Source: a virus
Strand: one strand, 5' to 3'
Length of the DNA stretch: 34,701 nucleotides
IMG/VR virus record: IMGVR_UViG_3300033998_000166
Coordinates: 1-34,701 of that record
In this document: positions 1,717 through 17,308 of the stretch, piece by piece
How positions within the stretch are numbered: the stretch's first letter is position 1
Layout: the number at the start of each line of letters is the position of its first letter
Notes under the pieces: model-generated
What the model was told of the DNA's origin: nothing
Databases searched by the model: none
The model's input: only the letters and a program-made list of their open reading frames with translations
Position numbers and translations under genes: made by a program

Positions 1717-3117
1717 ATGAGCATAAAAGAAGTGCTCGACTTTTTGAACATCTCTAAATGGCATGATGCCGGTTACAAAGGCCAGGGCGTGAAAGTTCTG
1801 ATGATTGACGATGGATGGGAAGACAGGCCTTGGTTCGATGGGAAGCTCCATATAGTCCATTCCAATGGGCCATCGGGTAGCCAGCACGGAATCAAAACTG
1901 CCGAAACTCTCCATATCGTGGCCCCGGAAGCGGAAATATATGTGCATGAAGTTTCATATCCCGCCTACCCTACACCGGACGTAGTGCTTCGGTATATTCT
2001 CGAAAACGACATACACATTGTTTCTATGTCTATGGGCGGATCTATCTTCAGACAGCCGGAATACAGAAGCCTGCTGGCAGAAGCCACAAAAAAGGCGATA
2101 TTTTTCACTTCGGCAGGAAATACGGGTGGGCCATTAACTGGGGCCGCCAACGATGATGAATATTGGATAGCTGTAGGAGCAGCATATCTCTTGAAAGGAA
2201 AACCTATGCGAGAGAGCTATTCTTCGATAGGCCCTTCGCTGGACGTAATGGGCCTAACAGGAATAGAAGTCCATTCCTCCGACGGGCAGAGGCTATTTGC
2301 ACCAGAAGGAACATCTTTCTCCTGCCCCGTTGTGGCAGGAATGATGGCAATATACTACTCGTGGTTTTATGAACAATATCGCCGCTATCCCACACCTGAC
2401 GAGGCAAAAGCATTCCTGTTCGCCAATTGCATGGATATGGAGGAACAAGGCCGGGACGACCGAACGGGTCACGGCCTTTTTGTATTGCCGAAAGAGATAC
2501 CGGAGGTGAAGGTGGTGAATAGACCGAAATATATCATTGTCCATCACAGCGCTACGAAGCAGGGTGATACCGAAACCTTCCGCCGCTACCACGTAGAAGT
2601 AAACGGCTGGAAGGATATAGGCTACCACTACGTCGTCAATAACGGCACATATAAATCCGACGGCCTAATAGAAAAAGGCAGGGACGAAAAAGAAGTAGGC
2701 GCACACGCTATCGGCTACAACGACAAATCAATCGGTATATGCCTTGTTGGAAACTTCGATGAAGACAGACCAACAGAAAAGCAGATGCAATCCCTTATTC
2801 GTCTATGCAAGGACATCATGAGGCGATACAATATCCCGGCCAAGAACGTGCTTGGGCATAGGGAAACCGGGGCAAAGAAGACTTGCCCAGGCAAAAACTT
2901 CGATATGGAGGCGTTGAGAAGGATGCTTGAGGAAAAGGTTATTACGCTTAGGGTTGGCAGCAAAGAAATGACCGTGAATGGCCGCAAAATTGCCCTCGAC
3001 GTACCCGCCAAGGTCGAAAACGGCAGGACGTTAGTCCCTCTCCGGGCTATTGCGGAGGCGTTCGGTTTTAGTGTCCATTATGACGACAAAACCAAGACTA
3101 TTACGATTCGGGGGTGA
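1717..3117 (+). CDS. Endolysin with three domains: S8 subtilase-like, N-acetylmuramoyl-L-alanine amidase (amidase_2/PGRP type), and a Cu-amine-oxidase-N-like wall-binding repeat
   Basis: S8 triad context: VLMIDDGW (Asp), SQHGIKTAE (His), GTSFSCPVVAG (Ser). Amidase_2 motifs: IIVHHSAT, GYHYVV, GAHAIGYNDKSIGICLVGNF, LGHRE..KTCPGKNF. C-terminal repeat: NGRTLVPLRAIAEAFGFSVHYDDKTKTITI. RBS is AGGAGG. Confidence 0.85.
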   Translation: MSIKEVLDFLNISKWHDAGYKGQGVKVLMIDDGWEDRPWFDGKLHIVHSNGPSGSQHGIKTAETLHIVAPEAEIYVHEVSYPAYPTPDVVLRYILENDIHIVSMSMGGSIFRQPEYRSLLAEATKKAIFFTSAGNTGGPLTGAANDDEYWIAVGAAYLLKGKPMRESYSSIGPSLDVMGLTGIEVHSSDGQRLFAPEGTSFSCPVVAGMMAIYYSWFYEQYRRYPTPDEAKAFLFANCMDMEEQGRDDRTGHGLFVLPKEIPEVKVVNRPKYIIVHHSATKQGDTETFRRYHVEVNGWKDIGYHYVVNNGTYKSDGLIEKGRDEKEVGAHAIGYNDKSIGICLVGNFDEDRPTEKQMQSLIRLCKDIMRRYNIPAKNVLGHRETGAKKTCPGKNFDMEALRRMLEEKVITLRVGSKEMTVNGRKIALDVPAKVENGRTLVPLRAIAEAFGFSVHYDDKTKTITIRG

Positions 3118-4149: not shown

Positions 4150-4536
4150 ATGTTGCATGAATATACTCGAAAGAACACAATAGAGGCGTTTTTCAAATGT
4201 GATGAAAAAGGAGAAGATGCTACCATTGCCGTACGACAGACTGTTGTCTCGCCCCGCCGATTGAACCCAGTTTCTCCTTTATATGTAGAAGAGAGAGCTA
4301 CAAAATCGACGGACGGTTTTCACCCAATAATACACAAGGTGTTCAGACAGGCATTTGACCCCTTGTATGGCACACAACCTGTTATTGTCGAGGTAGTAGT
4401 GAATGTAGTACGTAATCCTTGGGGTGATAGAGCTAGGTATGTAGAAAATATCTGCATTGTCCAGGATGAGGGCGAATTGGCTGAAGGGGCCTGGAAGACA
4501 AAAGCTCTCATAAGTGCGCTCAAAACACCTCTATGA
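4150..4536 (+). CDS. Hypothetical protein (128 aa), second gene of the accessory operon
   Basis: ATG 4150 follows AAGGAGGAAAG and is preferred over the ORF-track ATG 4108, which has no RBS. No motif was recognised. Confidence 0.65.
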   Translation: MLHEYTRKNTIEAFFKCDEKGEDATIAVRQTVVSPRRLNPVSPLYVEERATKSTDGFHPIIHKVFRQAFDPLYGTQPVIVEVVVNVVRNPWGDRARYVENICIVQDEGELAEGAWKTKALISALKTPL

Positions 4537-4554
4537 GAGCGAGGAGGAAACAAA

Positions 4555-4734
4555 ATGGACCTTGAATGGATAACCCTAGCCGAAGCCGCACGGAGGTGGG
4601 GGCGAGCAGATTCCACCCTGCGGCACGCCATACGCCGGGGCCGGTTCACGCCGGACGAGGTACGCAAGTCCGGCAAGGTCTGGCTAGTGCGGACTTCGGC
4701 AATGACACGACTTTACGGAAAGCCCCGTGAGTAG
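4555..4734 (+). CDS. Small HTH DNA-binding protein (59 aa; below the ORF-track cutoff)
   Basis: Hand translation gives MDLEWITLAEAARRWGRADSTLRHAIRRGRFTPDEVRKSGKVWLVRTSAMTRLYGKPRE. The RBS is GAGGAGGAAA. The pattern is of the excisionase/MerR-like HTH_17 type (L..AA...G.s..tlr..i..G). Confidence 0.65.
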   Translation: MDLEWITLAEAARRWGRADSTLRHAIRRGRFTPDEVRKSGKVWLVRTSAMTRLYGKPRE

Positions 4735-4750
4735 GGGCTTTTGTTTTTTT
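4720..4750 (+). terminator. Rho-independent terminator of the accessory operon
   Basis: Stem AAGCCCC/GGGGCTT with a T-rich tail (TTTTGTTTTTTT). Confidence 0.8.
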
Positions 4751-4827
4751 GCTCTTCCAAGAAGGAATTTTTGTGAAAATATTGAAGAAAATATATACAG
4801 AAACTATCTTGGGAGGTGTTTTCTTCT

Positions 4828-5502
4828 ATGTTGTCTAAAACAATCAAAATCATCATTATTGGCATTCTCATCGTAGCCCTGGCCGGTGGTGCAGTTTTCG
4901 CAGCGCAGGCTAAGTATAAGGGCTTTCCCGTAGCAAACTTGATGCTGAACGGGCAACGAGTAACTCCGCCGAGCCCTGCCATCATTATTGACGGAACAAC
5001 CTACGTCCCGTTGCGGTTCGTCAGTGAATCGATGGGTATCAAGGTCGCATGGGACGGAAAAACGCAAACGGTCATCATCGGAGAAAAGCAGGCCGCATCT
5101 ACCCCAGCTCAGCCCAAGAATGAAATCGCGGTCAAGGACGCTTCGGGCAAGGTCCTCTATGCTCTCAGAATCAACAAAGTCACGACAATGACCGAGCGCA
5201 ACCCCTTCGCTGACACGAATCCTGTGCAGGTTGTGATGATTGACTATACCTATACCAACGTAGCGAGCGATGAAGATGTATACATCAGCGAGCTCAACTT
5301 TAAGGTGGTGGACTCTGCCGGTAAGGTGGGCTATCTATATCCGAACTCTCCCAAGAATTATCCGCAACGCATACCCAAAGGTACTACCTGCAACGCCCAG
5401 GTAATTTTCGGACTCGACACCAAGAGCGACAAGGTCAAGATACATTTCTACAAGGACCTATTCGGCCCCGTCACCGCTACGTTCGAACTGCCGGTTGAAT
5501 AG
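4828..5502 (+). CDS. Membrane-anchored accessory protein: Cu-amine-oxidase-N-like domain plus beta-rich DUF4352-like C-terminal domain
   Basis: ATG 4828 lies 9 nt after GGGAGGTG. There is an N-terminal TM helix IIIIGILIVALAGGAVFAA. The segment NGQRV..IIIDGTTYVPLRFVSESMGIKVAWDGKTQTVIIG matches the endolysin C-terminal repeat type. Confidence 0.7.
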   Translation: MLSKTIKIIIIGILIVALAGGAVFAAQAKYKGFPVANLMLNGQRVTPPSPAIIIDGTTYVPLRFVSESMGIKVAWDGKTQTVIIGEKQAASTPAQPKNEIAVKDASGKVLYALRINKVTTMTERNPFADTNPVQVVMIDYTYTNVASDEDVYISELNFKVVDSAGKVGYLYPNSPKNYPQRIPKGTTCNAQVIFGLDTKSDKVKIHFYKDLFGPVTATFELPVE

Positions 5503-8702: not shown

Positions 8703-8946
8703 GTGCAAAAGTGAAGCCGCTTTAACATTTAAAAATGCATTTTCATTTAGGTACCCAGAAGGATGGCATTTTATCACAACTAAAATTATGGGAACAAAAG
8801 TGGAAGCGGAATACTTCTTGTGCCCGGATTGTTGCAACAAATTAGGGCTAAATGAACCAATTATCCAAGAAGAAGATAAAAAATCTGTCGCCGATAGACT
8901 AATTGAATGCATCGAAGAAATTGTCGAATCGCTCATGGAGGGTTAG
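8674..8946 (+). CDS. Hypothetical zinc-ribbon-like protein (CxxC...CxxC)
   Basis: ATG 8674 follows GGGAGG. The protein has CDRC near the N-terminus and CPDCC later. Confidence 0.6.
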   Translation: MIKAIYICDRCKSEAALTFKNAFSFRYPEGWHFITTKIMGTKVEAEYFLCPDCCNKLGLNEPIIQEEDKKSVADRLIECIEEIVESLMEG

Positions 8947-8948
8947 AA

Positions 8949-10646
8949 GTGATAGAAGTATTCCGGCGGCCAATATTTAGCAAGCCGCAAATTCGAATAC
9001 AAAACAACCAAATATACCTGAAATGCGACTTCGCAGACAAGGATAAGGCGAAAGAGATACCAGGATATCGCTGGGACCGGGAGCAAAAATGCTGGGTGTA
9101 TCCGCTGTCACTTGAAGTCTACAAACAAATATGTGAGCACTTCCCCGACGTGGAGGCCGACAATGTGACAAATGCAATTCTGAACGATATGATAGCCCGA
9201 GCACATTATGTTACAAAGGCGAAGCTGGCAGGATGGGAGAAAGTAGAGCCGCTTAAACCGATGCCAGTTAAGGTCAAGCCATTCCGCCACCAAATCCTTG
9301 GCTACAATATAGGCATTACCCTTCCTAATGTTGCCCTCCTTATGGAAATGGGGACCGGCAAGAGTCTTACCGCCCTAGCAATAGCCGGCAGGCGATACCT
9401 AGACGGACAAATCAAAAAACTTCTCATTGTATGCCCTACCAGTATTATGTTCGTCTGGCACGACGAATTCGAGAAATTCGCAAACTTCCCGTATTCACTG
9501 CTGGTGCTCGATGGTCCGGTCCAGAAACGAATCGAGCGGCTCCAGGAATTTAAGGGGGAAGGCCTCCAGGTTGCCGTCATAAACTACGAATCGGTGTGGC
9601 GCATGGAGGATGAGCTCCGTAGGTGGGAGCCGGACATGATTATTTCCGATGAATCCCAACGCATCAAGACACCTTCGGCCCAACAGTCCAAAGCCATGCA
9701 CCGCCTGGGCAAAATCGCAAAATACCGCATGATTCTTACGGGGACACCGGTCACCCAGGGGCCGCTAGACTTCTTCTCACAATACAAATTCCTGGACCCG
9801 ACCATCTTCGGCAACAGTTTTTACGCCTTTAGAGCCAGATACGCCGTTATGGGCGGCTATGAAAACCGGCAGGTGGTCCGGTATCAGAACCTGCCGGAGT
9901 TGATAGAGAAGGCCCACAGTATAGCTTTCCGCGTCACGAAAGCCGAAGCGCTGGACCTGCCGGAGCAGATAGACCAAATTCGCTATTGCGAACTGGAGCC
10001 CAAAGCCACGAGAATATACGAGCAGATGCGGCGGGAATGCATCGCGGAGCTCGAAAACGAGAAGGTCGTCACGGCAGCGAACGTGCTCTCAAAGCTGCTC
10101 CGGCTCCAGCAAATTACCGGCGGGTTCCTGGGGGACGGCGAGGGTGGCGTCCAGAAGGTAAGCAACGCCAAGCTGGATGTTCTTCGGGAGATTCTGGAGG
10201 ACATCGTTATCGACAACGGAAAAAAGGTCGTCATTTTTGCCCGGTTTCGGCCGGAGATAGCGGCCATCGAAAAATTGTTAACAGATATGGCACTGCACTA
10301 CGGCACAATTACAGGCGATACGCCGATGAAGGAAAGAGGGGAAAAGGTCCACGCATTCCAGACCGGAGCAAGTATAAATGTATTCGTGGCACAGCTCCAA
10401 ACGGCGGGGCTCGGGATAACACTCTCGGCAGCAGATACGGCGGTGTTCTACAGCCTGGATTTCAGCTTCGCAAACTACGACCAGGCCAGAGCAAGATTAC
10501 ATCGTATCGGCCAAAAAAACAACGTCACAAATATTCACATTATCGCTAAAGGAACAGTGGATGAAAAAGTTATGAAAGCCCTGGCGAAGAAGAAGAACCT
10601 GGCGGACCTGGTGGTGGATGGGTGGAGGCAGGTGTTTGAACCATGA
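8949..10646 (+). CDS. SNF2-family helicase
   Basis: GTG follows GGAGGG. Walker A is MGTGKSL. Motif II is DESQRIK. Other motifs: LTGTPVTQGPLDFFSQYKFLDP and the C-terminal QARARLHRIGQ. Confidence 0.9.
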   Translation: MIEVFRRPIFSKPQIRIQNNQIYLKCDFADKDKAKEIPGYRWDREQKCWVYPLSLEVYKQICEHFPDVEADNVTNAILNDMIARAHYVTKAKLAGWEKVEPLKPMPVKVKPFRHQILGYNIGITLPNVALLMEMGTGKSLTALAIAGRRYLDGQIKKLLIVCPTSIMFVWHDEFEKFANFPYSLLVLDGPVQKRIERLQEFKGEGLQVAVINYESVWRMEDELRRWEPDMIISDESQRIKTPSAQQSKAMHRLGKIAKYRMILTGTPVTQGPLDFFSQYKFLDPTIFGNSFYAFRARYAVMGGYENRQVVRYQNLPELIEKAHSIAFRVTKAEALDLPEQIDQIRYCELEPKATRIYEQMRRECIAELENEKVVTAANVLSKLLRLQQITGGFLGDGEGGVQKVSNAKLDVLREILEDIVIDNGKKVVIFARFRPEIAAIEKLLTDMALHYGTITGDTPMKERGEKVHAFQTGASINVFVAQLQTAGLGITLSAADTAVFYSLDFSFANYDQARARLHRIGQKNNVTNIHIIAKGTVDEKVMKALAKKKNLADLVVDGWRQVFEP

Positions 10647-10807: not shown

Positions 10808-11198
10808 ACTCGCAGCGAAATTGAAAACGCTGCGGGAAGAAAAGAAAGAGATGGAGGAACGGCTTAAAGCCATTGAATCAGAAATCGAAGAAACGGAAAA
10901 CCAGTTATCCCAGGAAATGGTTAACGCCGAAATTCAAAACTTCAACAAAGACGGAACAACCTTCTACCTGCAAATCAAGACCTATGCTAGCATAAAACCC
11001 GAATTTAAACAGCAAGTCTACGACTGGCTCAAGGCCAACGGATTCGAATCCTTAGTCTACGAGACGGTCAACGCTCAAAGATTTTCAGCTTTCATTAAGG
11101 AGCTCCTGGAGGAAGTAGATGAACTTCCCAGCGAGCTCAAAGATAAAGTCAACGTTTTTGAAAAAATTACTGTCGGCATGAGGAAGGCCGGCAAATAA
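10788..11198 (+). CDS. Coiled-coil protein resembling siphovirus Gp157 family
   Basis: TTG follows GGTGGGAGG. There is an N-terminal heptad-rich segment, and the C-terminal part reads ETVNAQRFSAFIKELLEE. The family assignment is from memory only. Confidence 0.5.
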   Translation: MQETIFELAAKLKTLREEKKEMEERLKAIESEIEETENQLSQEMVNAEIQNFNKDGTTFYLQIKTYASIKPEFKQQVYDWLKANGFESLVYETVNAQRFSAFIKELLEEVDELPSELKDKVNVFEKITVGMRKAGK

Positions 11199-11219
11199 AA
11201 AAGACAGGAGGATGAGCTT

Positions 11220-11957
11220 ATGGCGAACGAACTTGCGGTCATTAATGATTTTCAATTCCCCGCAGTAGAAGGCATGGGGTCCATATTTCAGGAAGAAATG
11301 CAGGGGTTATCTTTCACCTTCGACCGCGTAAAAATTCCAAGCGGTGGCGGGTTGGCTTTCGAGGTCCCTGGCGATGATGAAGAAAATCCGGATATGGTAA
11401 AGGAAATTGTCGGCGTCATTGTAGACCATTACCCCGTGAACGCTTACTGGCAGGACAAATACGCAGGGCAGAACAATCCGCCGAACTGCGCCAGCATGGA
11501 CGGCGTAAAGGGCGTTGACAGGGACACGGGCGAAGTCCGGACCTGCAATTCCTGCCCCTATAACGCATTCGGCACGGCCGAGGACGGCCGGGGTAAGGCC
11601 TGCAAGAACATGCACCGAATATACATCCTGCGTAACGGCGAGTTGTTTCCCCTGCTGCTTACCCTGCCGCCGACATCGCTCAAGAATTTTGCAAACTACC
11701 TGGCGAAGCGGGTTCTTGGCCGTGGCAAGAAAAGCCACGAAGTTGTCACAAAGATTAGTCTCAAGAAAGCTACATCAAGCCAGGGCATTGCATATTCCCA
11801 GGCGGCGTTCTCGCTGGTGGGTGTATTACCCCCGGAGGTCGCTGAAAAGATGAAAGTATATGCCGAACAGATACGGCCATTTACTAGGAACTTGCAGATT
11901 ACGCAGGACGAGGCTATCGAGGCCGAAGCCGCGTCCGGGGGAAATCTCCCGTTTTAA
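11220..11957 (+). CDS. Hypothetical Cys-containing protein of the replication/recombination module
   Basis: RBS is AGGAGG. Motifs seen: VKIPSGGGLAFEV, PPNCASMDG, CNSCPYNAFG, GKACKN. No family was confidently recognised. Confidence 0.7.
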   Translation: MANELAVINDFQFPAVEGMGSIFQEEMQGLSFTFDRVKIPSGGGLAFEVPGDDEENPDMVKEIVGVIVDHYPVNAYWQDKYAGQNNPPNCASMDGVKGVDRDTGEVRTCNSCPYNAFGTAEDGRGKACKNMHRIYILRNGELFPLLLTLPPTSLKNFANYLAKRVLGRGKKSHEVVTKISLKKATSSQGIAYSQAAFSLVGVLPPEVAEKMKVYAEQIRPFTRNLQITQDEAIEAEAASGGNLPF

Positions 11958-12014
11958 TCCAGAGCGGGCCGGTTCGGCCCGCTCTCACAAAAATACGGAG
12001 GAGGCTAAAGAAAA

Positions 12015-12761
12015 ATGATTAGAACTGCAAAATACAACGTCGAGATAGAATTTATCGAGCCGATACTCGGTTCCTTGCCGGCGGACCCGGCGGTCTATAC
12101 GAATTATATTGCATCCAAGGCGCCCTCAACATGGCAGCACGACGAAGAAGTAGAGCTTGCCGATGCCAGGGCGGACGAGATGAATTTGGATAAAGGAATT
12201 ACCGTATTCGCAAGGGATGAAAAGGGCTTATTCCTCTACAACTATCACGTCAAAGGCTTTCTTAAGGAAGTTGCAAACATGCTCAAAGATAATTTCGGCA
12301 TACCGAACTTACGCTCTAAGATAGATTATTACGTATACGTGCAGCCCAGGCGCATTTATCTTACTCGGCCCAACGGCAGAATCATACAGGAAGAAGATGA
12401 AATTTTCGAACGCCCGCTCCGTGCAAAGACGGCACAAGGAGAACGCGTCGCACTTGCGGCCTCGGAACGCATTAATCCGCCGTGCAAAATACAATTCACG
12501 CTGGAAATTGTGGAAAATTCAGCGGGAATTACGTGGGAGCTACTGCAGGAAATATGCAAATTCGGCCGCCTGAAAGGATTAGGCCAATGGCGGAACGGTG
12601 GCTGGGGGCAATTCGAACTAAAAACCTTTGAACTCGCACCCGGCTCAAAGCACCTGGAACCGATAGAGAAAGTATCGGGCAATAAAAAGAAAGCCGAAGA
12701 AAGTGAAGGCGAAGAAAAGAAGCGCAGGGGCCGCAAGAAGAAAGAAGAAAGTGCGGCCTAA
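12015..12761 (+). CDS. Hypothetical protein with RAMP-like signatures and a K/E/R-rich tail
   Basis: RBS is GGAGGAGG. The segment GLGQWRNGGWG (aa 188-198; nt 12576-12608) fits the RAMP glycine-rich loop pattern GhGxxxxxGhG. Also present are IEPILGSLP, YHVKGFLKE and the C-terminal tail KKKAEESEGEEKKRRGRKKKEESAA. Confidence 0.75.
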   Translation: MIRTAKYNVEIEFIEPILGSLPADPAVYTNYIASKAPSTWQHDEEVELADARADEMNLDKGITVFARDEKGLFLYNYHVKGFLKEVANMLKDNFGIPNLRSKIDYYVYVQPRRIYLTRPNGRIIQEEDEIFERPLRAKTAQGERVALAASERINPPCKIQFTLEIVENSAGITWELLQEICKFGRLKGLGQWRNGGWGQFELKTFELAPGSKHLEPIEKVSGNKKKAEESEGEEKKRRGRKKKEESAA

Positions 12762-12893
12762 CAAAGGCGAGGTAAAGTGGAGTGATGCTAAGGTAATGCA
12801 AAGCCTGGCATTGTAACAGCAAAGTAAGGCGCTGCTAAGTTTAGGAACGGCAAGGCGATGCTTTGTGATAGGAAAGTAAAGCATTGCACCGCC

Positions 12894-13000
12894 CTCCGCA
12901 GCGGTTAAGCATCGTTCGGCATAGCAACGGCGCTGCGGAGTCAAGTCAAGCAGGGGTAATGCAATCCGCCGTTCGGCAAAAGCAGAGCCCTGCTGACTTG
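12894..13000 (+). other. Two abutting long hairpins
   Basis: First stem: CTCCGCAGCG (12894-12903) pairs with CGCTGCGGAG (12931-12940). Second stem: CAAGTCAAGCAGGG (12942-12955) pairs with CCCTGCTGACTTG (12988-13000), giving 13 bp and one bulged A. Both loops contain CGTTCGGCA. Confidence 0.6.
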
Positions 13001-13447
13001 GCAATGGCATCGCGTTGTTCAGCTACGGCTTTGAATGGTGGGGCAAAAGCAAAAGCCTGCATAGCACGGCAAAGGCACGACATGGCATGGCAGTGTTATG
13101 CAATGGTGCGGTGCTGCGATGCAAAGGCGGAGCTAGACACGGCGAGGTTGTGGTGATGTTCAGTGATGCATAGGTATGGCAGGGTAAAGCGAGGGCGTCG
13201 TTCTGCGATGCATAGTGGAGCATAGGAAAGGCAAGCCGTAGCAAGGCCAAGGAGGAGCATTGCTCAACGATGCAGAGCAGGGTAGGGGCTGAGCGGAGCT
13301 GAGCAAAGCGATACGATGCAGCAGTTAGGCTAGGCAGGGCGATGCTGAGGCTGAGCGAGGCAACGTAACGGTACTGTTTAGTATTGTTTAGCAAGGTGCT
13401 GCATAGCATCGCGGCGTTGCGTAAGTTTTGCATAAGTTTTGCAAGTA

Positions 13448-13546
13448 AGCATAGGTATTGCGTGGTCTTGTATGGTATAGCATAGGCACAGCGTAGTCTT
13501 GTATGGTATAGCATAGGCACAGCGTAGTCTTGTATGGTATAGCATG
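13448..13546. repeat. 31-bp tandem repeat, about 3 copies
   Basis: The unit GTCTTGTATGGTATAGCATAGGCACAGCGTA is exact at 13465-13495 and 13496-13526. A partial third copy runs from 13527, and a degenerate copy lies upstream from 13448. Confidence 0.9.
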
Positions 13547-13882
13547 GGCTTTGCCTTGCCTCGCAAGGTGAAGCATGGGCAGTGCATCGTAGAGTAATGC
13601 ATCGGCTGAGCCTCGCGCAGCAGGGGTGTAGCAGTGAGCGGTAGGGGCACCGCTAGGGAAAGTAACGCAACGGCTATGCGAAAGCAAAGCTGCGCGTTAC
13701 GATGCACCGGCGGCGTACTGTCAGGCAAAGGTAACGCTTTTGTATTGTGACGTTTTGCAACGGCTTTGCTTGGCAAAACAAAGGCGATGCCGAGCCCCAC
13801 ATATCACAGGCAAAACAATAGCCAGTAGGCGAGCCAGCCCTGTCTCCCTTGAGCGATTCTTGGTGAGGGAGAGTGATATTAA

Positions 13883-14050
13883 GTGGAAAGAAAAACATGT
13901 CCACTTACCATGCTCAGCGGGATAGAACGTCATGACTATGTACTACTTTATTGCCGTGAAGAGAAATGTGCATGGTGGGATGAAAAATCTAAAAAATGTG
14001 CGTTCGTATCAATTGCTAGTATCGCAAGAATTATAGGGAATACAATATAG
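13883..14050 (+). CDS. Small 4-Cys protein (55 aa; below the ORF-track cutoff)
   Basis: GTG lies 9 nt after GAGGGAGAG. Hand translation gives MERKTCPLTMLSGIERHDYVLLYCREEKCAWWDEKSKKCAFVSIASIARIIGNTI. The alternative start is ATG 13910. Confidence 0.5.
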   Translation: MERKTCPLTMLSGIERHDYVLLYCREEKCAWWDEKSKKCAFVSIASIARIIGNTI

Positions 14051-14098
14051 AGCTGCTCCGACCGCAAGTCCAGCAATGCACGGCGGGGCGGTAAATGC

Positions 14099-14172
14099 AC
14101 GGGAGTAGTCTAAGGGTAGGACACAGGACTTTGGCTCCTGTAGTGCAGGTTCGAATCCTGCCTCCCGTGCCA
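14099..14172 (+). tRNA. tRNA-Gln (anticodon UUG), CCA encoded
   Basis: Hand-folded 74-nt cloverleaf. Acceptor stem ACGGGAG/CTCCCGT. D stem GTCT/GGAC. Anticodon stem CAGGA/TCCTG with loop CTTTGGC. T arm GCAGG-TTCGAAT-CCTGC. Discriminator G, then CCA. Confidence 0.85.
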
Positions 14173-14197
14173 CAACTCAAAGGAGGTGAATAAGCAA

Positions 14198-14428
14198 ATG
14201 ATTGATATGTCAATCATCAAAGATGTCCTCTTCGAAAAAAAGTCTGTCGTAGTAACGAATAGAACAAGTATTGACTGCAAAGTGAATATCGAGAGCGGGT
14301 ATATTGAATTAATACCAGAGCCTATTGTTGTAAATTTCATGGATATTGATTCAATCGAACTTAAAAGCAATGGGATTATAAAAATAACGTTTACAGATTC
14401 GAGGGTTTTAGGATTAATTGTCGAATAG
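14198..14428 (+). CDS. Hypothetical protein (76 aa), AT-rich gene
   Basis: ATG 14198 lies 9 nt after AGGAGGTG. The ORF-track GTG 14186 lies inside the RBS. Confidence 0.6.
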   Translation: MIDMSIIKDVLFEKKSVVVTNRTSIDCKVNIESGYIELIPEPIVVNFMDIDSIELKSNGIIKITFTDSRVLGLIVE

Positions 14429-14432
14429 AGGC

Positions 14433-14455
14433 GGGGCGGGCCACCCCGGCCTGCC
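14433..14455. repeat. GC-rich motif GGGCGG(G)C(C/T)ACCCCGGCCTGCC, copy 1
   Basis: It starts 5 nt after the stop of 14198..14428. A near-identical copy lies at 14636-14658. Confidence 0.7.
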
Positions 14456-14479
14456 TTACTTGAAACGGAGGTAGTTGTC

Positions 14480-14620
14480 ATGAAGGGAAAAGGAAAAAAG
14501 AAACGCACGTGCTGTATTTGCGGCACGAAGCTCCAGAATTCCGAAAAAAGTATATGTGCAGACTGTTTCGAAAGATGGGTAAGGGCATTTGTGGCAGACT
14601 ATATAGCTCGGCAGAGATAA
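14480..14620 (+). CDS. Small zinc-ribbon-like protein (46 aa; below the ORF-track cutoff)
   Basis: ATG follows ACGGAGGT. Hand translation gives MKGKGKKKRTCCICGTKLQNSEKSICADCFERWVRAFVADYIARQR. Confidence 0.5.
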   Translation: MKGKGKKKRTCCICGTKLQNSEKSICADCFERWVRAFVADYIARQR

Positions 14621-14635
14621 AGTTAGCAACCTTAA

Positions 14636-14658
14636 ACGGGCGGCTACCCCGGCCTGCC
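14636..14658. repeat. GC-rich motif, copy 2
   Basis: ACGGGCGGCTACCCCGGCCTGCC, located 16 nt after the stop of 14480..14620. Confidence 0.7.
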
Positions 14659-14723
14659 CTGCTAACATATTAAAAAGAACATCATTAAATTGGAGCGAAT
14701 CAGCTTTGCAATGCGGCACTGAT

Positions 14724-14750
14724 GGGCGAACCAACATCCCTGGTTCGCCC
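14724..14750 (+). promoter_or_regulatory. Perfect 9-bp hairpin upstream of the primase-helicase gene
   Basis: GGGCGAACC, a 9-nt loop, then GGTTCGCCC. There is no T-tract. It lies 30 nt before the start codon. Confidence 0.4.
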
Positions 14751-14779
14751 GCATCCCCTTGCTTAAAAGGAGGCCTAAC

Positions 14780-17308
14780 ATGGCTACAATCGACAGACTA
14801 GGCTTAGACAACCGAATAGACTACAGAGAATTCTACCGTCAGCGGTTGCGGAATTTTAAAGATAAAGGCGACGAGCTCGTCGCCGACTGCCCTTTCCATA
14901 ATGATACAAAACAGCATTTCTATATCAACGCCAAGACCGGACAATATCATTGTAAGGTCTGCAACGAAGCTGGCAACGCTCAAACCTTCCTCGAAAAGAC
15001 CGAACACCTCACCCCCCAGGAAGCCTACCAGAAACTGCTCAAAATCGCCGGAATTGAGCCGAAAAGCACGCAGAAAAAACCGAAAGTAGACTATTTTTCG
15101 CAATATGCTGAAATGAAGAAACTACCGAAGGATTTTCTTCAATCTTTGGGCATCAAGAACGCCAATATCGGAATCTCTATTCCCTACATGGACGAAGCCG
15201 GCGTCGTAGTAGCAACGAAGAAAAGGCGTATCTCCGATGGTTCAGGGCCACGATTTACTTGGAACCGGGGAGCGAAACTACTCCCCTACGGTCTTTGGCG
15301 GCTGAAAGAAATTCGAGAAGCCGGCTACTGCATCCTGGTGGAAGGTGAGAGCGATTCACAAACGCTTTGGTATCACGGCTTCCAGGCACTGGGTATCCCA
15401 GGAGCAGGGAGCTTCAAAAACGAGTGGGTGGACTACATCCGGGACGTGCCGAAAATATACATCCACCAGGAGCCGGGCGAGGGTGGGGAGGCGTTCCTAA
15501 AACAAATATGCGGCAAGCTCCTGGACGAAGGCTACCGGGGCAAGGTGTATGTGATACATACCCCGGGCTACAAGGACCCTTCCGACCTGCACGTCGCCGA
15601 CCCGAACGGGTTCAAAGCAACGTGGCAGAAGGTCCTCGAATCGGCCAGAGAGCTCAATCTTGCAGACTTCGAACCGAGGCCCGAGGAAATCATACCAAAC
15701 GCACCGATACGCCTCCGCCTGCCGGTTGGCTGGATTGTGAACGAAAACGGCGTATACAAGCAGGAAAAGGACGGCCTGCTCCTCGTCTGTCCCGTTCCGA
15801 TACTCATCACGAAGCGGCTTCGAAATATAGATACGGGCAATGAAAAAATTGAAATTCACTTCCGGCGCGACAACCAGGACCACTACATCCGCGCCAACCG
15901 GAGCACGGTTTTTCAGAACCGGACCATCACGCAGCTCGCGGACCGCGGCCTGCCGGTGACGAGCGAGAACGCCAAGAAATTAGTTAAATACCTCGGCGAC
16001 CTCGAGGCAGAAAACATGAAGCTCATACCGGTCCAGCGGTCTACGGAGCAGATGGGATGGGTGAGTTCAAGCATCTTCATCCCGGGTGCCGACGGCGATG
16101 TTGTCCTGGATGTGGACGAAGGTTCGGCGTACATCGCGGCGGCATATCACCCGGAGGGCAGCCCCGACGAATGGAAAAATGCAGCCGTGCAGGCCAGGGC
16201 AATATCGCCGATTGCCAGATTCGTATTGGCGGCAAGTTTCGCCGCACCGCTTTTATCCATCCTGAACCAGCGCGTGTTCGTGGTCCACTGCTGGGGGCCG
16301 AGCCGCGGTGGAAAGACGGCAGCGATAAAGCTGGCCCTGAGCGTTTGGGGCAACCCCGAAACACTGCTCATGAACTTCAACGCCACAAAGGTTGCTCTGG
16401 AGCGGTTGGCGTCATTCTTTAACGACCTGCCCCTGGGAATAGACGAAAAACAGGTTGCCGGTGATAAACAGGGATTCGTGGAGGGGCTGATATATCTTCT
16501 CGGTTTGGGCAAAGGCCGGGCAAGAGGCACGAAAACGGGCTGGCTGCAGCAGTTCAAATATTGGCGAACCATAGCTCTTACCAGCGGCGAAGAACCGATT
16601 TCAACGGCCTCTAGTCACACCGGCATAATTACAAGAACACTGGAACTCCGGGGGCAGCCCATACCTGACGAAAGATTCGCCGCGAAACTGCACGACATCG
16701 TAGTTGAACATTACGGCCACGCAGGGCCGGTATTCATCCGTAAATTAATCGAATTTATCAAGGACAACCCTGAGGACATAAAGGCATTGTATGAATCTAT
16801 CCTGGAACACCTCGATGTATACGGCGCAGGCAAGCTCGGTTCGCACAAAGCGGCGGTCGCGACGGTGTGTGTGGGCGACATTTTATCGAGCATGTGGATT
16901 TTCGGGCATGAACCGGCGATAGCAAAAAGCGAGGCAATGGAACTGGCCGAATTCATCCTGGACTCCCTGCAGGATTACGAAGAAGCCGACTACGCTGAAC
17001 GAGCGAAGGAATGGCTCGATTCCTGGATAGCGCAGCACTGGGCGAATTTCGGCGACGACGCCAAGGAGCGGTTCGGCTGGGTGAAGCCGGATGGCATTGC
17101 GATACTACCGTCGGCACTGGAACCAGCGATGAAGAAGGAGGGCTTTTCACCCACGAGGGTATATTCGGACTTCGCGGAGAGGGGGTGGATTCTTGGAGGG
17201 GACGGCAGGCACATCAAACGGAAGATACAAATCGAAAACAAGCAGTATAGAGTAATATTCTACACGGGGCTCGACAGGGATGATGACGAGGAAGAAATAC
17301 CTTTCTGA
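14780..17308 (+). CDS. Bifunctional primase-helicase (CHC2-type zinc finger, Toprim, P-loop NTPase; DUF927/D5-like)
   Basis: ATG follows AAAGGAGG. Zinc motif CPFHNDTKQHF...YHCKVC. Toprim segment ILVEGESDSQTL. Walker A GPSRGGKT. Walker B-like LPLGIDEKQ. Confidence 0.85.
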   Translation: MATIDRLGLDNRIDYREFYRQRLRNFKDKGDELVADCPFHNDTKQHFYINAKTGQYHCKVCNEAGNAQTFLEKTEHLTPQEAYQKLLKIAGIEPKSTQKKPKVDYFSQYAEMKKLPKDFLQSLGIKNANIGISIPYMDEAGVVVATKKRRISDGSGPRFTWNRGAKLLPYGLWRLKEIREAGYCILVEGESDSQTLWYHGFQALGIPGAGSFKNEWVDYIRDVPKIYIHQEPGEGGEAFLKQICGKLLDEGYRGKVYVIHTPGYKDPSDLHVADPNGFKATWQKVLESARELNLADFEPRPEEIIPNAPIRLRLPVGWIVNENGVYKQEKDGLLLVCPVPILITKRLRNIDTGNEKIEIHFRRDNQDHYIRANRSTVFQNRTITQLADRGLPVTSENAKKLVKYLGDLEAENMKLIPVQRSTEQMGWVSSSIFIPGADGDVVLDVDEGSAYIAAAYHPEGSPDEWKNAAVQARAISPIARFVLAASFAAPLLSILNQRVFVVHCWGPSRGGKTAAIKLALSVWGNPETLLMNFNATKVALERLASFFNDLPLGIDEKQVAGDKQGFVEGLIYLLGLGKGRARGTKTGWLQQFKYWRTIALTSGEEPISTASSHTGIITRTLELRGQPIPDERFAAKLHDIVVEHYGHAGPVFIRKLIEFIKDNPEDIKALYESILEHLDVYGAGKLGSHKAAVATVCVGDILSSMWIFGHEPAIAKSEAMELAEFILDSLQDYEEADYAERAKEWLDSWIAQHWANFGDDAKERFGWVKPDGIAILPSALEPAMKKEGFSPTRVYSDFAERGWILGGDGRHIKRKIQIENKQYRVIFYTGLDRDDDEEEIPF

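Follow-up and report, generated by a model that had tools for sequence, protein, structure and literature searches.

A probable VIPR locus in a temperate siphovirus: a stand-alone RAMP protein adjoined by a kilobase-long pentanucleotide array

VIPR (Viral Interference Programmable Repeat) systems were first described in 2026 (bioRxiv 10.64898/2026.04.26.720920). That preprint presents Vipr as a stand-alone RAMP of ~20 kDa that is mostly encoded by phages, with flanking intergenic DNA that expresses vrRNAs of 9-16 YNNGG repeats followed by a conserved 3' tail (10.64898/2026.04.26.720920). The NN bases of the vrRNA are stated there to pair with double-stranded DNA, every third target base being skipped, and the effect is the silencing of transcription in competing phages. 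The preprint distinguishes seven VIPR types, gives NNNGG, YNNNG and NNNNG as alternative repeat consensuses, and includes both arrays separated by ribozymes and staggered arrays, where each vrRNA stops at the point at which its successor starts (10.64898/2026.04.26.720920). It names six families of vap accessory genes for the seven types, which implies that one VIPR type without a vap gene exists. VIPR is described as minimal and PAM-free, directing a 20-kDa protein to its DNA through a gapped code written in repeats, and it has been put forward as possibly ancestral to CRISPR RAMPs.

A companion preprint (10.64898/2026.04.26.720927) reports the structure of Vipr from phage SUSP1, with each repeat occupied by a single protomer. 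H17 and D177 read the first G of the unit (G1), R138 holds the second (G2), stacked on W178, and the pocket for the pyrimidine (Y3) includes R179 (10.64898/2026.04.26.720927). One turn of the free filament takes six protomers, and one turn of the DNA-bound filament takes five (10.64898/2026.04.26.720927). In both preprints, the thumb is treated as a defining feature of RAMPs and of Vipr (10.64898/2026.04.26.720920, 10.64898/2026.04.26.720927). We were led to these two 2026 preprints by the name of a PDB chain, 'SUSP1 Vipr protein'.

The window analysed here is the whole 34,701-nucleotide stretch of the IMG/VR virus record IMGVR_UViG_3300033998_000166. Pfam annotation portrays it as a complete-looking temperate siphovirus, with genes for an integrase, an S24 CI-like repressor, HTH proteins, a large terminase subunit, a portal, a prohead protease, a capsid, a tape measure, a holin and an amidase endolysin. 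The vipr gene sits in the replication module, together with an SNF2 helicase (8907-10646) and a DUF927 primase-helicase (14759-17308). Pfam and Rfam searches of the 34.7-kb phage genome found no cas genes and no CRISPR array, in keeping with the earlier description of the protein as a stand-alone one, and the Rfam scan of the window returned a single tRNA only. The features discussed below are as follows.

12015..12761, + strand: vipr gene, encoding a 248-aa stand-alone RAMP (Cas7-like), defined by its open reading frame and translation, homologues, model and profiles
~aa 1-208 of the protein: predicted core, an RRM with thumb and G-loop, followed by a lineage-specific K/E-rich tail
12399..12473, + strand: codons of the predicted thumb, a long beta-hairpin (aa 129-153), from the secondary structure of the model and from conservation
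12576..12608, + strand: codons of the glycine-rich loop GLGQWRNGGWG (aa 188-198), from conservation and from HMM and hhalign alignments
12639..12758, + strand: codons of the K/E/R-rich C-terminal tail (~aa 209-248), outside the conserved family core
12764..13774, + strand: candidate vrRNA array of ~190 NNNGY pentamers, beginning 2 nt past the vipr stop codon
13448..13549, + strand: 31-nt module of the array (six pentamers and one additional base), duplicated in tandem to 3.3 copies at 92% identity
13775..13890, + strand: structured 3' end of the array region, with stem-loops including CUCCCUU...GAGGGAG

We conclude that vipr and the 1-kb region downstream very probably form a VIPR system, a Vipr protein with its vrRNA array, of this temperate siphovirus. 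The reading draws on what is observed at the locus and among its relatives: the RAMP fold of the protein and its homology to Vipr, the code of the repeats and the strand they lie on, the hypervariability of the array and its constant linkage to the gene.

The reading frame at 12015-12761 on the + strand translates into 248 aa with no internal stops. The window protein has 587 homologues in a protein collection clustered at 90% identity, and an alignment of 54 sequences underlies all conservation figures given here as well as the family profile. Searched with this 54-member profile at E<=1e-3, a collection clustered at 50% identity yields 2750 cluster representatives. The window protein has no match in Pfam, PHROGs, NCBIfam or PADLOC, nor does a single-sequence search against PDB chains return any; since the curated libraries and that search gave nothing, only the family profile and the fold search are informative for the family assignment.

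The segment GLGQWRNGGWG, which a first-pass annotation of this DNA had taken for the glycine-rich loop of a RAMP, is the most conserved segment of the family, and its conservation lies far beyond chance. Five residues of the loop region (G184, G188, R193, N194 and G198) never vary, and three more (G190, Q191 and G195) are conserved in at least 90% of sequences. Two further segments had been singled out by eye. YHVKGFLKEV (aa 77-86), compared with the PGSS(L/I)KGxLR motif, is present and conserved (K84 is invariant; Y77, G81 and F82 reach at least 90%), and its resemblance to that motif is only approximate. EPILGSLP (aa 15-22) is likewise in place, with L18 invariant and G19 at 90% or above. 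The thumb carries a conserved motif of its own, ERPLRAxTxQGxR, in which R133 is invariant and R136 and R144 are at least 90% conserved. The K/E/R-rich tail noted after the core is real and confined to the closest relatives (P0002 and P0003), with a longer version in P0048; most homologues are ~200 aa long and end near residue 205 without such a tail, which is modelled as a low-confidence helix (pLDDT 60-67).

An AlphaFold2 model built from the family alignment has a pLDDT of 89.4 and a pTM of 0.81. Its first half consists of a strand (4-13) after which EPILGSLP follows, a helical insertion (25-55), short strands and a long helix (76-94) that starts with YHVKGFLKEV. The second half comprises strands at 107-115, the beta-hairpin (129-153), a strand (157-166) and helices (174-187), and the glycine loop then lies between the last helix and the last strand (200-207). 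This final strand coincides with QFELKTFEL, for which the first-pass annotation had anticipated a short strand after the loop. As modelled, the layout of RRM core, thumb and G-loop is that typical of Cas7-type RAMPs. A Foldseek search of the PDB, the structural check that the same annotation had put forward for its RAMP proposal, gives 108 matches at E<=1e-3, and the best 50 of the 108 are CRISPR RAMPs throughout, with no non-RAMP fold: Csm3 from several type III-A complexes, Cmr4, Cmr1, type VII Cas7, gRAMP/Cas7-11 and type III-D subunits. These 50 score at E 2e-6 to 1e-4 with a probability of 1.00, and the target-normalised TM-scores of the PDB RAMP matches are mostly 0.45-0.57 at 9-16% identity. 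Among the predicted viral structures of BFVD, the best named match is a Siphoviridae 'Cas system-associated RAMP superfamily protein' (E 6e-17), and archaeal-virus proteins rank next. By sequence, the family profile matches PDB entries through the G-loop, namely type VII Cas7 (E 8e-4) and Csm4 (E 9e-4).

The fold is shared by Csm3, Cmr4 and type VII Cas7, which likewise have an RRM core, a hairpin as thumb and, ahead of the final strand, a glycine-rich loop, and the G-loop of type VII Cas7, GIGGWLNKGYGR, is similar in sequence to that of the window protein. Unlike Csm3 and Cmr4, the window protein is predicted to carry an alpha-helical bundle at aa 25-55, between strand 1 and helix 1. The type III and type VII CRISPR-Cas effectors also work with an RNA partner of 6-nt periodicity, whereas the window system has a 5-nt one, and they come with other subunits (Cas10 or Cas14, Cas5, Cas11) and a CRISPR array, whereas the window phage is without Cas10, Cas5, Cas6, Cas11 and adaptation genes.

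Homology to the characterised Vipr was assessed by profile-profile comparison, for which the SUSP1 vipr gene was taken from the phage record and a family alignment of 40 sequences was built. With hhalign, the window family and the SUSP1 Vipr family align along the whole of both proteins, in 182 columns, at 95.5% probability, E 1.3e-8 and ~21% identity. A direct HMM match of the window family to PDB chain 36pp_D, the SUSP1 Vipr protein, likewise made via the G-loop, is weak (hmmsearch, E 0.009). On the strength of these alignments, the window protein is recognised as a distant homologue of the experimentally characterised SUSP1 Vipr. Three residues of its G-loop, Q191-W192-R193, align with D177-W178-R179 of SUSP1 Vipr, and SUSP1 H17 falls in a gap of the alignment. 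Where SUSP1 Vipr has D177 and H17, the window protein therefore has Q191 and no H17 counterpart, a change that would fit a relaxed requirement for the first G of the unit; the retained W-R dyad would in turn fit the conserved G-Y of the repeat. SUSP1 and a Pseudomonas fulva prophage, both with type II VIPR, likewise have a phage-borne stand-alone RAMP that is small (~200 aa), and the window Vipr differs from that of SUSP1 in carrying the K/E-rich C-terminal tail.

A RAMP in a phage could also have as its main task the cutting of the long repeat transcript, as a Cas6-like endoribonuclease would, or some other processing or targeting of RNA, rather than the formation of a DNA-silencing filament. 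Among solved folds, the nearest are the RNA-targeting subunits Csm3 and Cmr4, SUSP1 Vipr pairs with single-stranded RNA too in vitro (10.64898/2026.04.26.720927), and the array described below is a single long tract free of internal promoters, tails and ribozymes, so that some processing step is needed. The best fold matches, however, are backbone subunits of the Cas7 type, Cas6 is absent from the best 50 of the 108, and the model shows a single RRM as opposed to the double ferredoxin fold of Cas6. No catalytic motif was identified in the protein, and its SUSP1 homologue forms a stoichiometric filament on double-stranded DNA. We regard RNA processing or RNA targeting as an improbable main role.

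The DNA downstream of vipr had been described as repeat-rich, and its repeats are of a specific kind. Between 12762 and 13900, successive G[CT] dinucleotides are spaced by exactly 5 nt in 49% of cases, versus 8% in the rest of the window, and GY pairs 5 nt apart number 126 versus 41.7 +/- 5.5 in dinucleotide-preserving shuffles (z = 15.4). The resulting NNNGY array is the sole such region on the + strand of the window. NNNGY is YNNNG in the register of the VIPR preprint, one of the alternative consensuses given there. Applied to SUSP1 as a positive control, this detector picks up all four published vrRNAs, one of them upstream of vipr and the other three downstream. A plain period-5 Fourier scan of the window array gives a weak signal because the units recur on average every 5.2 nt, a period at which the spectrum has a power of 20 versus 0.4 at 5.0. 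Across the clade the period lies between 5.15 and 5.29, whereas SUSP1 arrays peak at 5.0. Long minus-strand open reading frames inside the array, such as 13023-13520, were considered as genes and rejected, since period-3 power in the array is 0.39 versus 3.74 in the vipr coding sequence.

The additional fifth of a nucleotide has a regular origin. Phase-tracking segmentation splits the array into 38 runs, mostly of 4-6 units, and at the head of each run stand a single additional base, mostly A, and then a true GGY unit. Phase shifts are exactly +1 in 33 of the 36 cases in the window (p = 4e-17) and in 154 of 173 across eight loci, and the runs between shifts most often hold 5 units (72 runs), followed by 4 (44) and 6 (23). 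Over 942 boundaries in the loci examined, the extra bases are spaced by 26 nt (240 cases), 31 nt (182), 21 nt (98) or 36 nt (83), and the boundary consensus is G-C / A / A-N-G-G-C. Position 3 of the unit, which corresponds to the first G of the SUSP1 GGY, is G in 30% of ordinary units, and the first unit past the extra base is a true GGY in 88%. Five units per module equal, perhaps by coincidence, the five protomers that make up a turn of the SUSP1 filament on DNA.

The first-pass annotation had tied the protein to the downstream region and had named co-occurrence of homologues with a similar non-coding region as a way of checking it. An adjoining pentamer array is present in all 88 relatives' loci examined (8 from the protein collection and 80 from IMG/VR). 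Together with the fold and the lack of cas genes, this supports that annotation's proposal of a stand-alone RAMP-like protein that may act on a transcript of 12762-13882. In the protein-collection set the same-strand array adjoins vipr at 8 of 8 loci; at the seven other than the window it lies downstream in six and upstream in one, with lengths from ~100 to 1650 nt. Of the 80 IMG/VR loci, 74 have an adjacent array by the GY criterion (47 downstream and 41 upstream, some having both), and the other six show a 5.1-5.15-nt spectral peak adjoining the gene. Kilobase-long arrays occur in the clade, up to 4.2 kb in one IMG/VR locus (L063). At least 554 relatives are found on IMG/VR contigs, and the window sequence itself turns up in two further samples, with 100% identity where the sequences overlap. 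In genomes, the protein's nearest relatives, at 51% identity, come from a Moorellaceae MAG and from Caldicoprobacter algeriensis, and more distant relatives are spread over many phyla; the host is probably a thermophilic or anaerobic member of the Bacillota.

The gene is kept with an array, and the content of the array changes rapidly. Two related loci (L001 and L003) are 85% identical over the SNF2 helicase, DUF7307, a 245-aa gene and vipr, and in their arrays nothing but 89 nt at the start and 45 nt at the end can be aligned, at 91% identity. The window array aligns with neither of the two. A still closer pair (L001 and L002), 99.9% identical, differs by an indel of ~52 nt inside the array. 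In alignable arrays, positions 1-3 are substituted at rates of 0.090, 0.082 and 0.083 per site, G4 at 0.049 and Y5 at 0.037. Conserved positions of the repeat thus alternate with hypervariable ones, and arrays differ between close relatives.

These data bear on two other readings of the repeats. According to the first, the tract is an iteron-like phage replication origin and the RAMP-fold protein a DNA-binding replication factor. The locus does lie among replication genes (the SNF2 helicase and the DUF927 primase-helicase), and helicases and primases are neighbours of vipr in other loci too. The repeats, though, are strand-asymmetric units of 5 nt as against iterons of 15-22 bp, and they are always on the strand of the gene, whether upstream or downstream of it. 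The tract is moreover hypervariable between phages whose replication genes are 85% identical, unlike a cognate origin, and the protein is homologous to one shown to bind such repeats as RNA. An origin is in our judgement very unlikely.

According to the second reading, gene and repeats are linked by descent only, and the repeats are a decaying or selfish simple-sequence tract or a decoy RNA that sequesters protein. It would accommodate the empty target searches reported below and the length of the tract, whose ~190 units compare with 9-16 in characterised vrRNAs and are far more than in any of them. Against it stand the conservation of G-Y while other positions vary, a module structure kept over the 942 boundaries, and a linkage that holds for hosts of many phyla; together, G-Y conservation, module upkeep and broad linkage point to selection on the repeat code. 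We attach almost no credence to a tract that carries no guide, and favour a vrRNA array.

The array ends in a structured element. The segment 13775-13890 folds at -43.6 kcal/mol (z = -3.1 versus shuffles), and it may be a terminal tail or a terminator. The 3'-terminal block of ~45 nt is conserved between the two 85%-identical loci, and the 3' part of the window element resembles this block; the consensus fold of the 3' element is weak and comes from three sequences only. No recurring invariant 3' tail was found inside the window array, where module duplications are the sole internal repeats. Searches of the + strand, including the stretch between vipr and the array and the array itself, gave no sigma-70-like promoter, and ribozymes or known RNA families were absent in and around the array even at E<=1. 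The lack of a vrRNA with 9-16 repeats and an invariant tail argues against a type II architecture and not against VIPR membership.

Candidate targets were sought under several pairing rules. A local search of 9-unit guides against ~0.1 Mb of loci under seven pairing rules did no better than shuffles. Guide windows drawn from every array (4465-5194 of them) also served for a seed search of 2.7 Mb of related viral loci. Under 16 rule variants, with skips of 0-3 and 2 or 3 bases read, seeds were no more frequent than in reversed controls, and extensions of the target seeds matched at random level. Exact-pattern scans were likewise empty: the longest window guide under the NNx rule had zero hits in viral and metagenome contig collections, and the NNN and NNNx rules and a two-module NNx pattern had zero in viral contigs.

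Nor do the neighbours of vipr include a constant partner. Across 90 loci the neighbours vary, and no conserved accessory (vap) gene was found beside vipr. Three candidates were rejected as conserved partners: the 245-aa protein encoded upstream (phrog_23155), near vipr in 4 of the 90 loci; DUF7307, in 3; and the SNF2 helicase, in 8. A PADLOC scan of two proteins, Vipr and the upstream neighbour (11220-11957), gave no matches.

Set beside type II VIPR as known from SUSP1, the window locus has the same elements in a different arrangement. In both, a same-strand pentanucleotide array with conserved G-Y lies in the intergenic DNA flanking the gene, and both phages are without cas genes and a CRISPR array. 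SUSP1, however, has four separate vrRNAs of ~100 nt, each with 12-16 units and its own leader and tail, whereas the window has one array of ~1 kb. SUSP1 type II further combines a pseudoknot tail per guide with a vap gene, and in the window clade neither such a tail nor a conserved vap gene was found. The clade thus departs from SUSP1 in several ways. Firstly, the first G of the unit is relaxed, being needed about once in five units, and units have three variable bases each versus two in SUSP1. Secondly, an extra base sets off modules of ~26 nt. Finally, the array is a single long tract without internal tails, and it is accompanied by no conserved vap gene. Other VIPR types (I and III-VII), as outlined in the preprint, include YNNNG repeats, staggered arrays and one type without a vap gene, all of which are compatible with the window locus, and the peculiarities of the clade may already fall within the published type scheme.

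How such a locus might work can be sketched from the SUSP1 studies, on which transcription, filament assembly, DNA targeting and biological role are all modelled here. The array would be transcribed on the + strand, most likely together with vipr, since it starts 2 nt past the stop codon and no promoter-like site lies between the two. Copies of the RAMP would assemble on the RNA into a polymer with a protomer on every five-base unit, each gripping the G-Y of its unit through the glycine loop (W192 and R193), helix 1 and the thumb and leaving the variable bases exposed. By analogy with SUSP1, the exposed bases would form discontinuous pairs with double-stranded DNA belonging to a competing phage or another mobile element, whose transcription would thereby be silenced. 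Module-sized guides could be cut from a polycistronic RNA, or very long filaments could read DNA with a different skip pattern. That the recognition code and guide architecture of this clade truly differ from the published SUSP1 rule is conceivable, and we put it forward only tentatively, as a rather doubtful proposition.

Systems of this kind have been known since the 2026 preprints, and the window locus is a further member. It confirms that the VIPR class is recognisable from raw sequence alone, and it adds a well-delimited example from a temperate phage in a clade that is very abundant, with its 2750 representatives at 50% identity and its spread over many phyla. If the published 'staggered arrays' are different from what is seen here, the locus would represent an undescribed variant of noncontiguous RNA-guided recognition. 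If the 5.2-nt rhythm and the D-to-Q change reflect a different reading rule, the clade would widen the design space of programmable DNA recognition and would provide a natural experiment linking sequence to structure in the reading of repeats by Vipr.

The gene immediately upstream of vipr, which encodes the stand-alone Cas7-like RAMP protein, overlaps a possible transcriptional signal at its 3' end.

Features of the region 5' of vipr
11220-11957, + strand: gene for a 245-aa protein, immediately 5' of vipr
11936-11951, + strand: terminator-like hairpin, then a T-run (CGGGGGAAATCTCCCG TTTTAATCCA)

The 245-aa protein has no match in Pfam or NCBIfam, strongly matches phrog_23155, a PHROG of unknown function, and contains a cysteine cluster (C...CNSCP...CKN). 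Its identity exceeds 90% among the close relatives L001-L003. Because just 4 of 90 loci have it close to vipr, a role as a Vipr accessory was considered and rejected, and the gene is assigned to the replication module. The terminator-like hairpin lies within the 3' end of this gene, 64 nt 5' of the vipr start codon. If it is functional, vipr and the downstream array of NNNGY pentamers, the candidate vrRNA tract, would need a promoter of their own; a sigma-70 consensus search for one found none.

BFVD entry A0A8S5R426, from Siphoviridae sp. ctcMb1, belongs to the same family as the window protein (34% identity) and is labelled 'Cas system-associated RAMP superfamily protein' in its public virome record. 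Automated annotation had thus spotted the RAMP nature of the vipr homologues before the preprints on VIPR (Viral Interference Programmable Repeat) systems.

Endolysin-like gene
1717-3117, + strand: endolysin-like protein with a subtilase (Peptidase_S8) region, Amidase_2 and Cu_amine_oxidN1

This domain make-up, together with the recurrence of the Cu_amine_oxidN1 wall-binding domain in the protein at 4816-5502, points to a host among the Bacillota.

Arrays in the window and in a related locus
12755-12770 and 13772-13787, + strand: 16-nt direct repeat (GGCCTAACAAAGGCGA / GGCAAAACAAAGGCGA), copies 88% identical
14099-14172, + strand: tRNA-Gln, anticodon UUG (Rfam, 68.6 bits)
L063 (IMGVR_UViG_3300035520_000350, 243-kb contig) 11061-15320: giant array of ~4.2 kb, downstream of a vipr homologue

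The two copies of the direct repeat flank the window's array, one at the first unit and one at the last, an arrangement that could be due to chance, and the tRNA-Gln lies ~200 nt 3' of the array region, before the primase-helicase gene. Among relatives, array placement and size vary. Pentamer arrays flank the vipr homologue on both sides in L015, L032, L038, L051, L072 and other IMG/VR loci, and in some loci, such as L010, the array lies solely upstream. The L063 array, with a period of 5.1 nt and no period-3 signal, far exceeds in length every vrRNA array in the VIPR preprint text. The L001 and L002 contigs are 99.9% identical and differ by a ~52-nt indel inside the array (~6772-6794 in L001 versus ~6088-6118 in L002), equivalent to two 26-nt modules, and the window's array carries a 31-nt triplication at 13448-13549. 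Together, this indel and triplication suggest that arrays expand and contract by whole modules.
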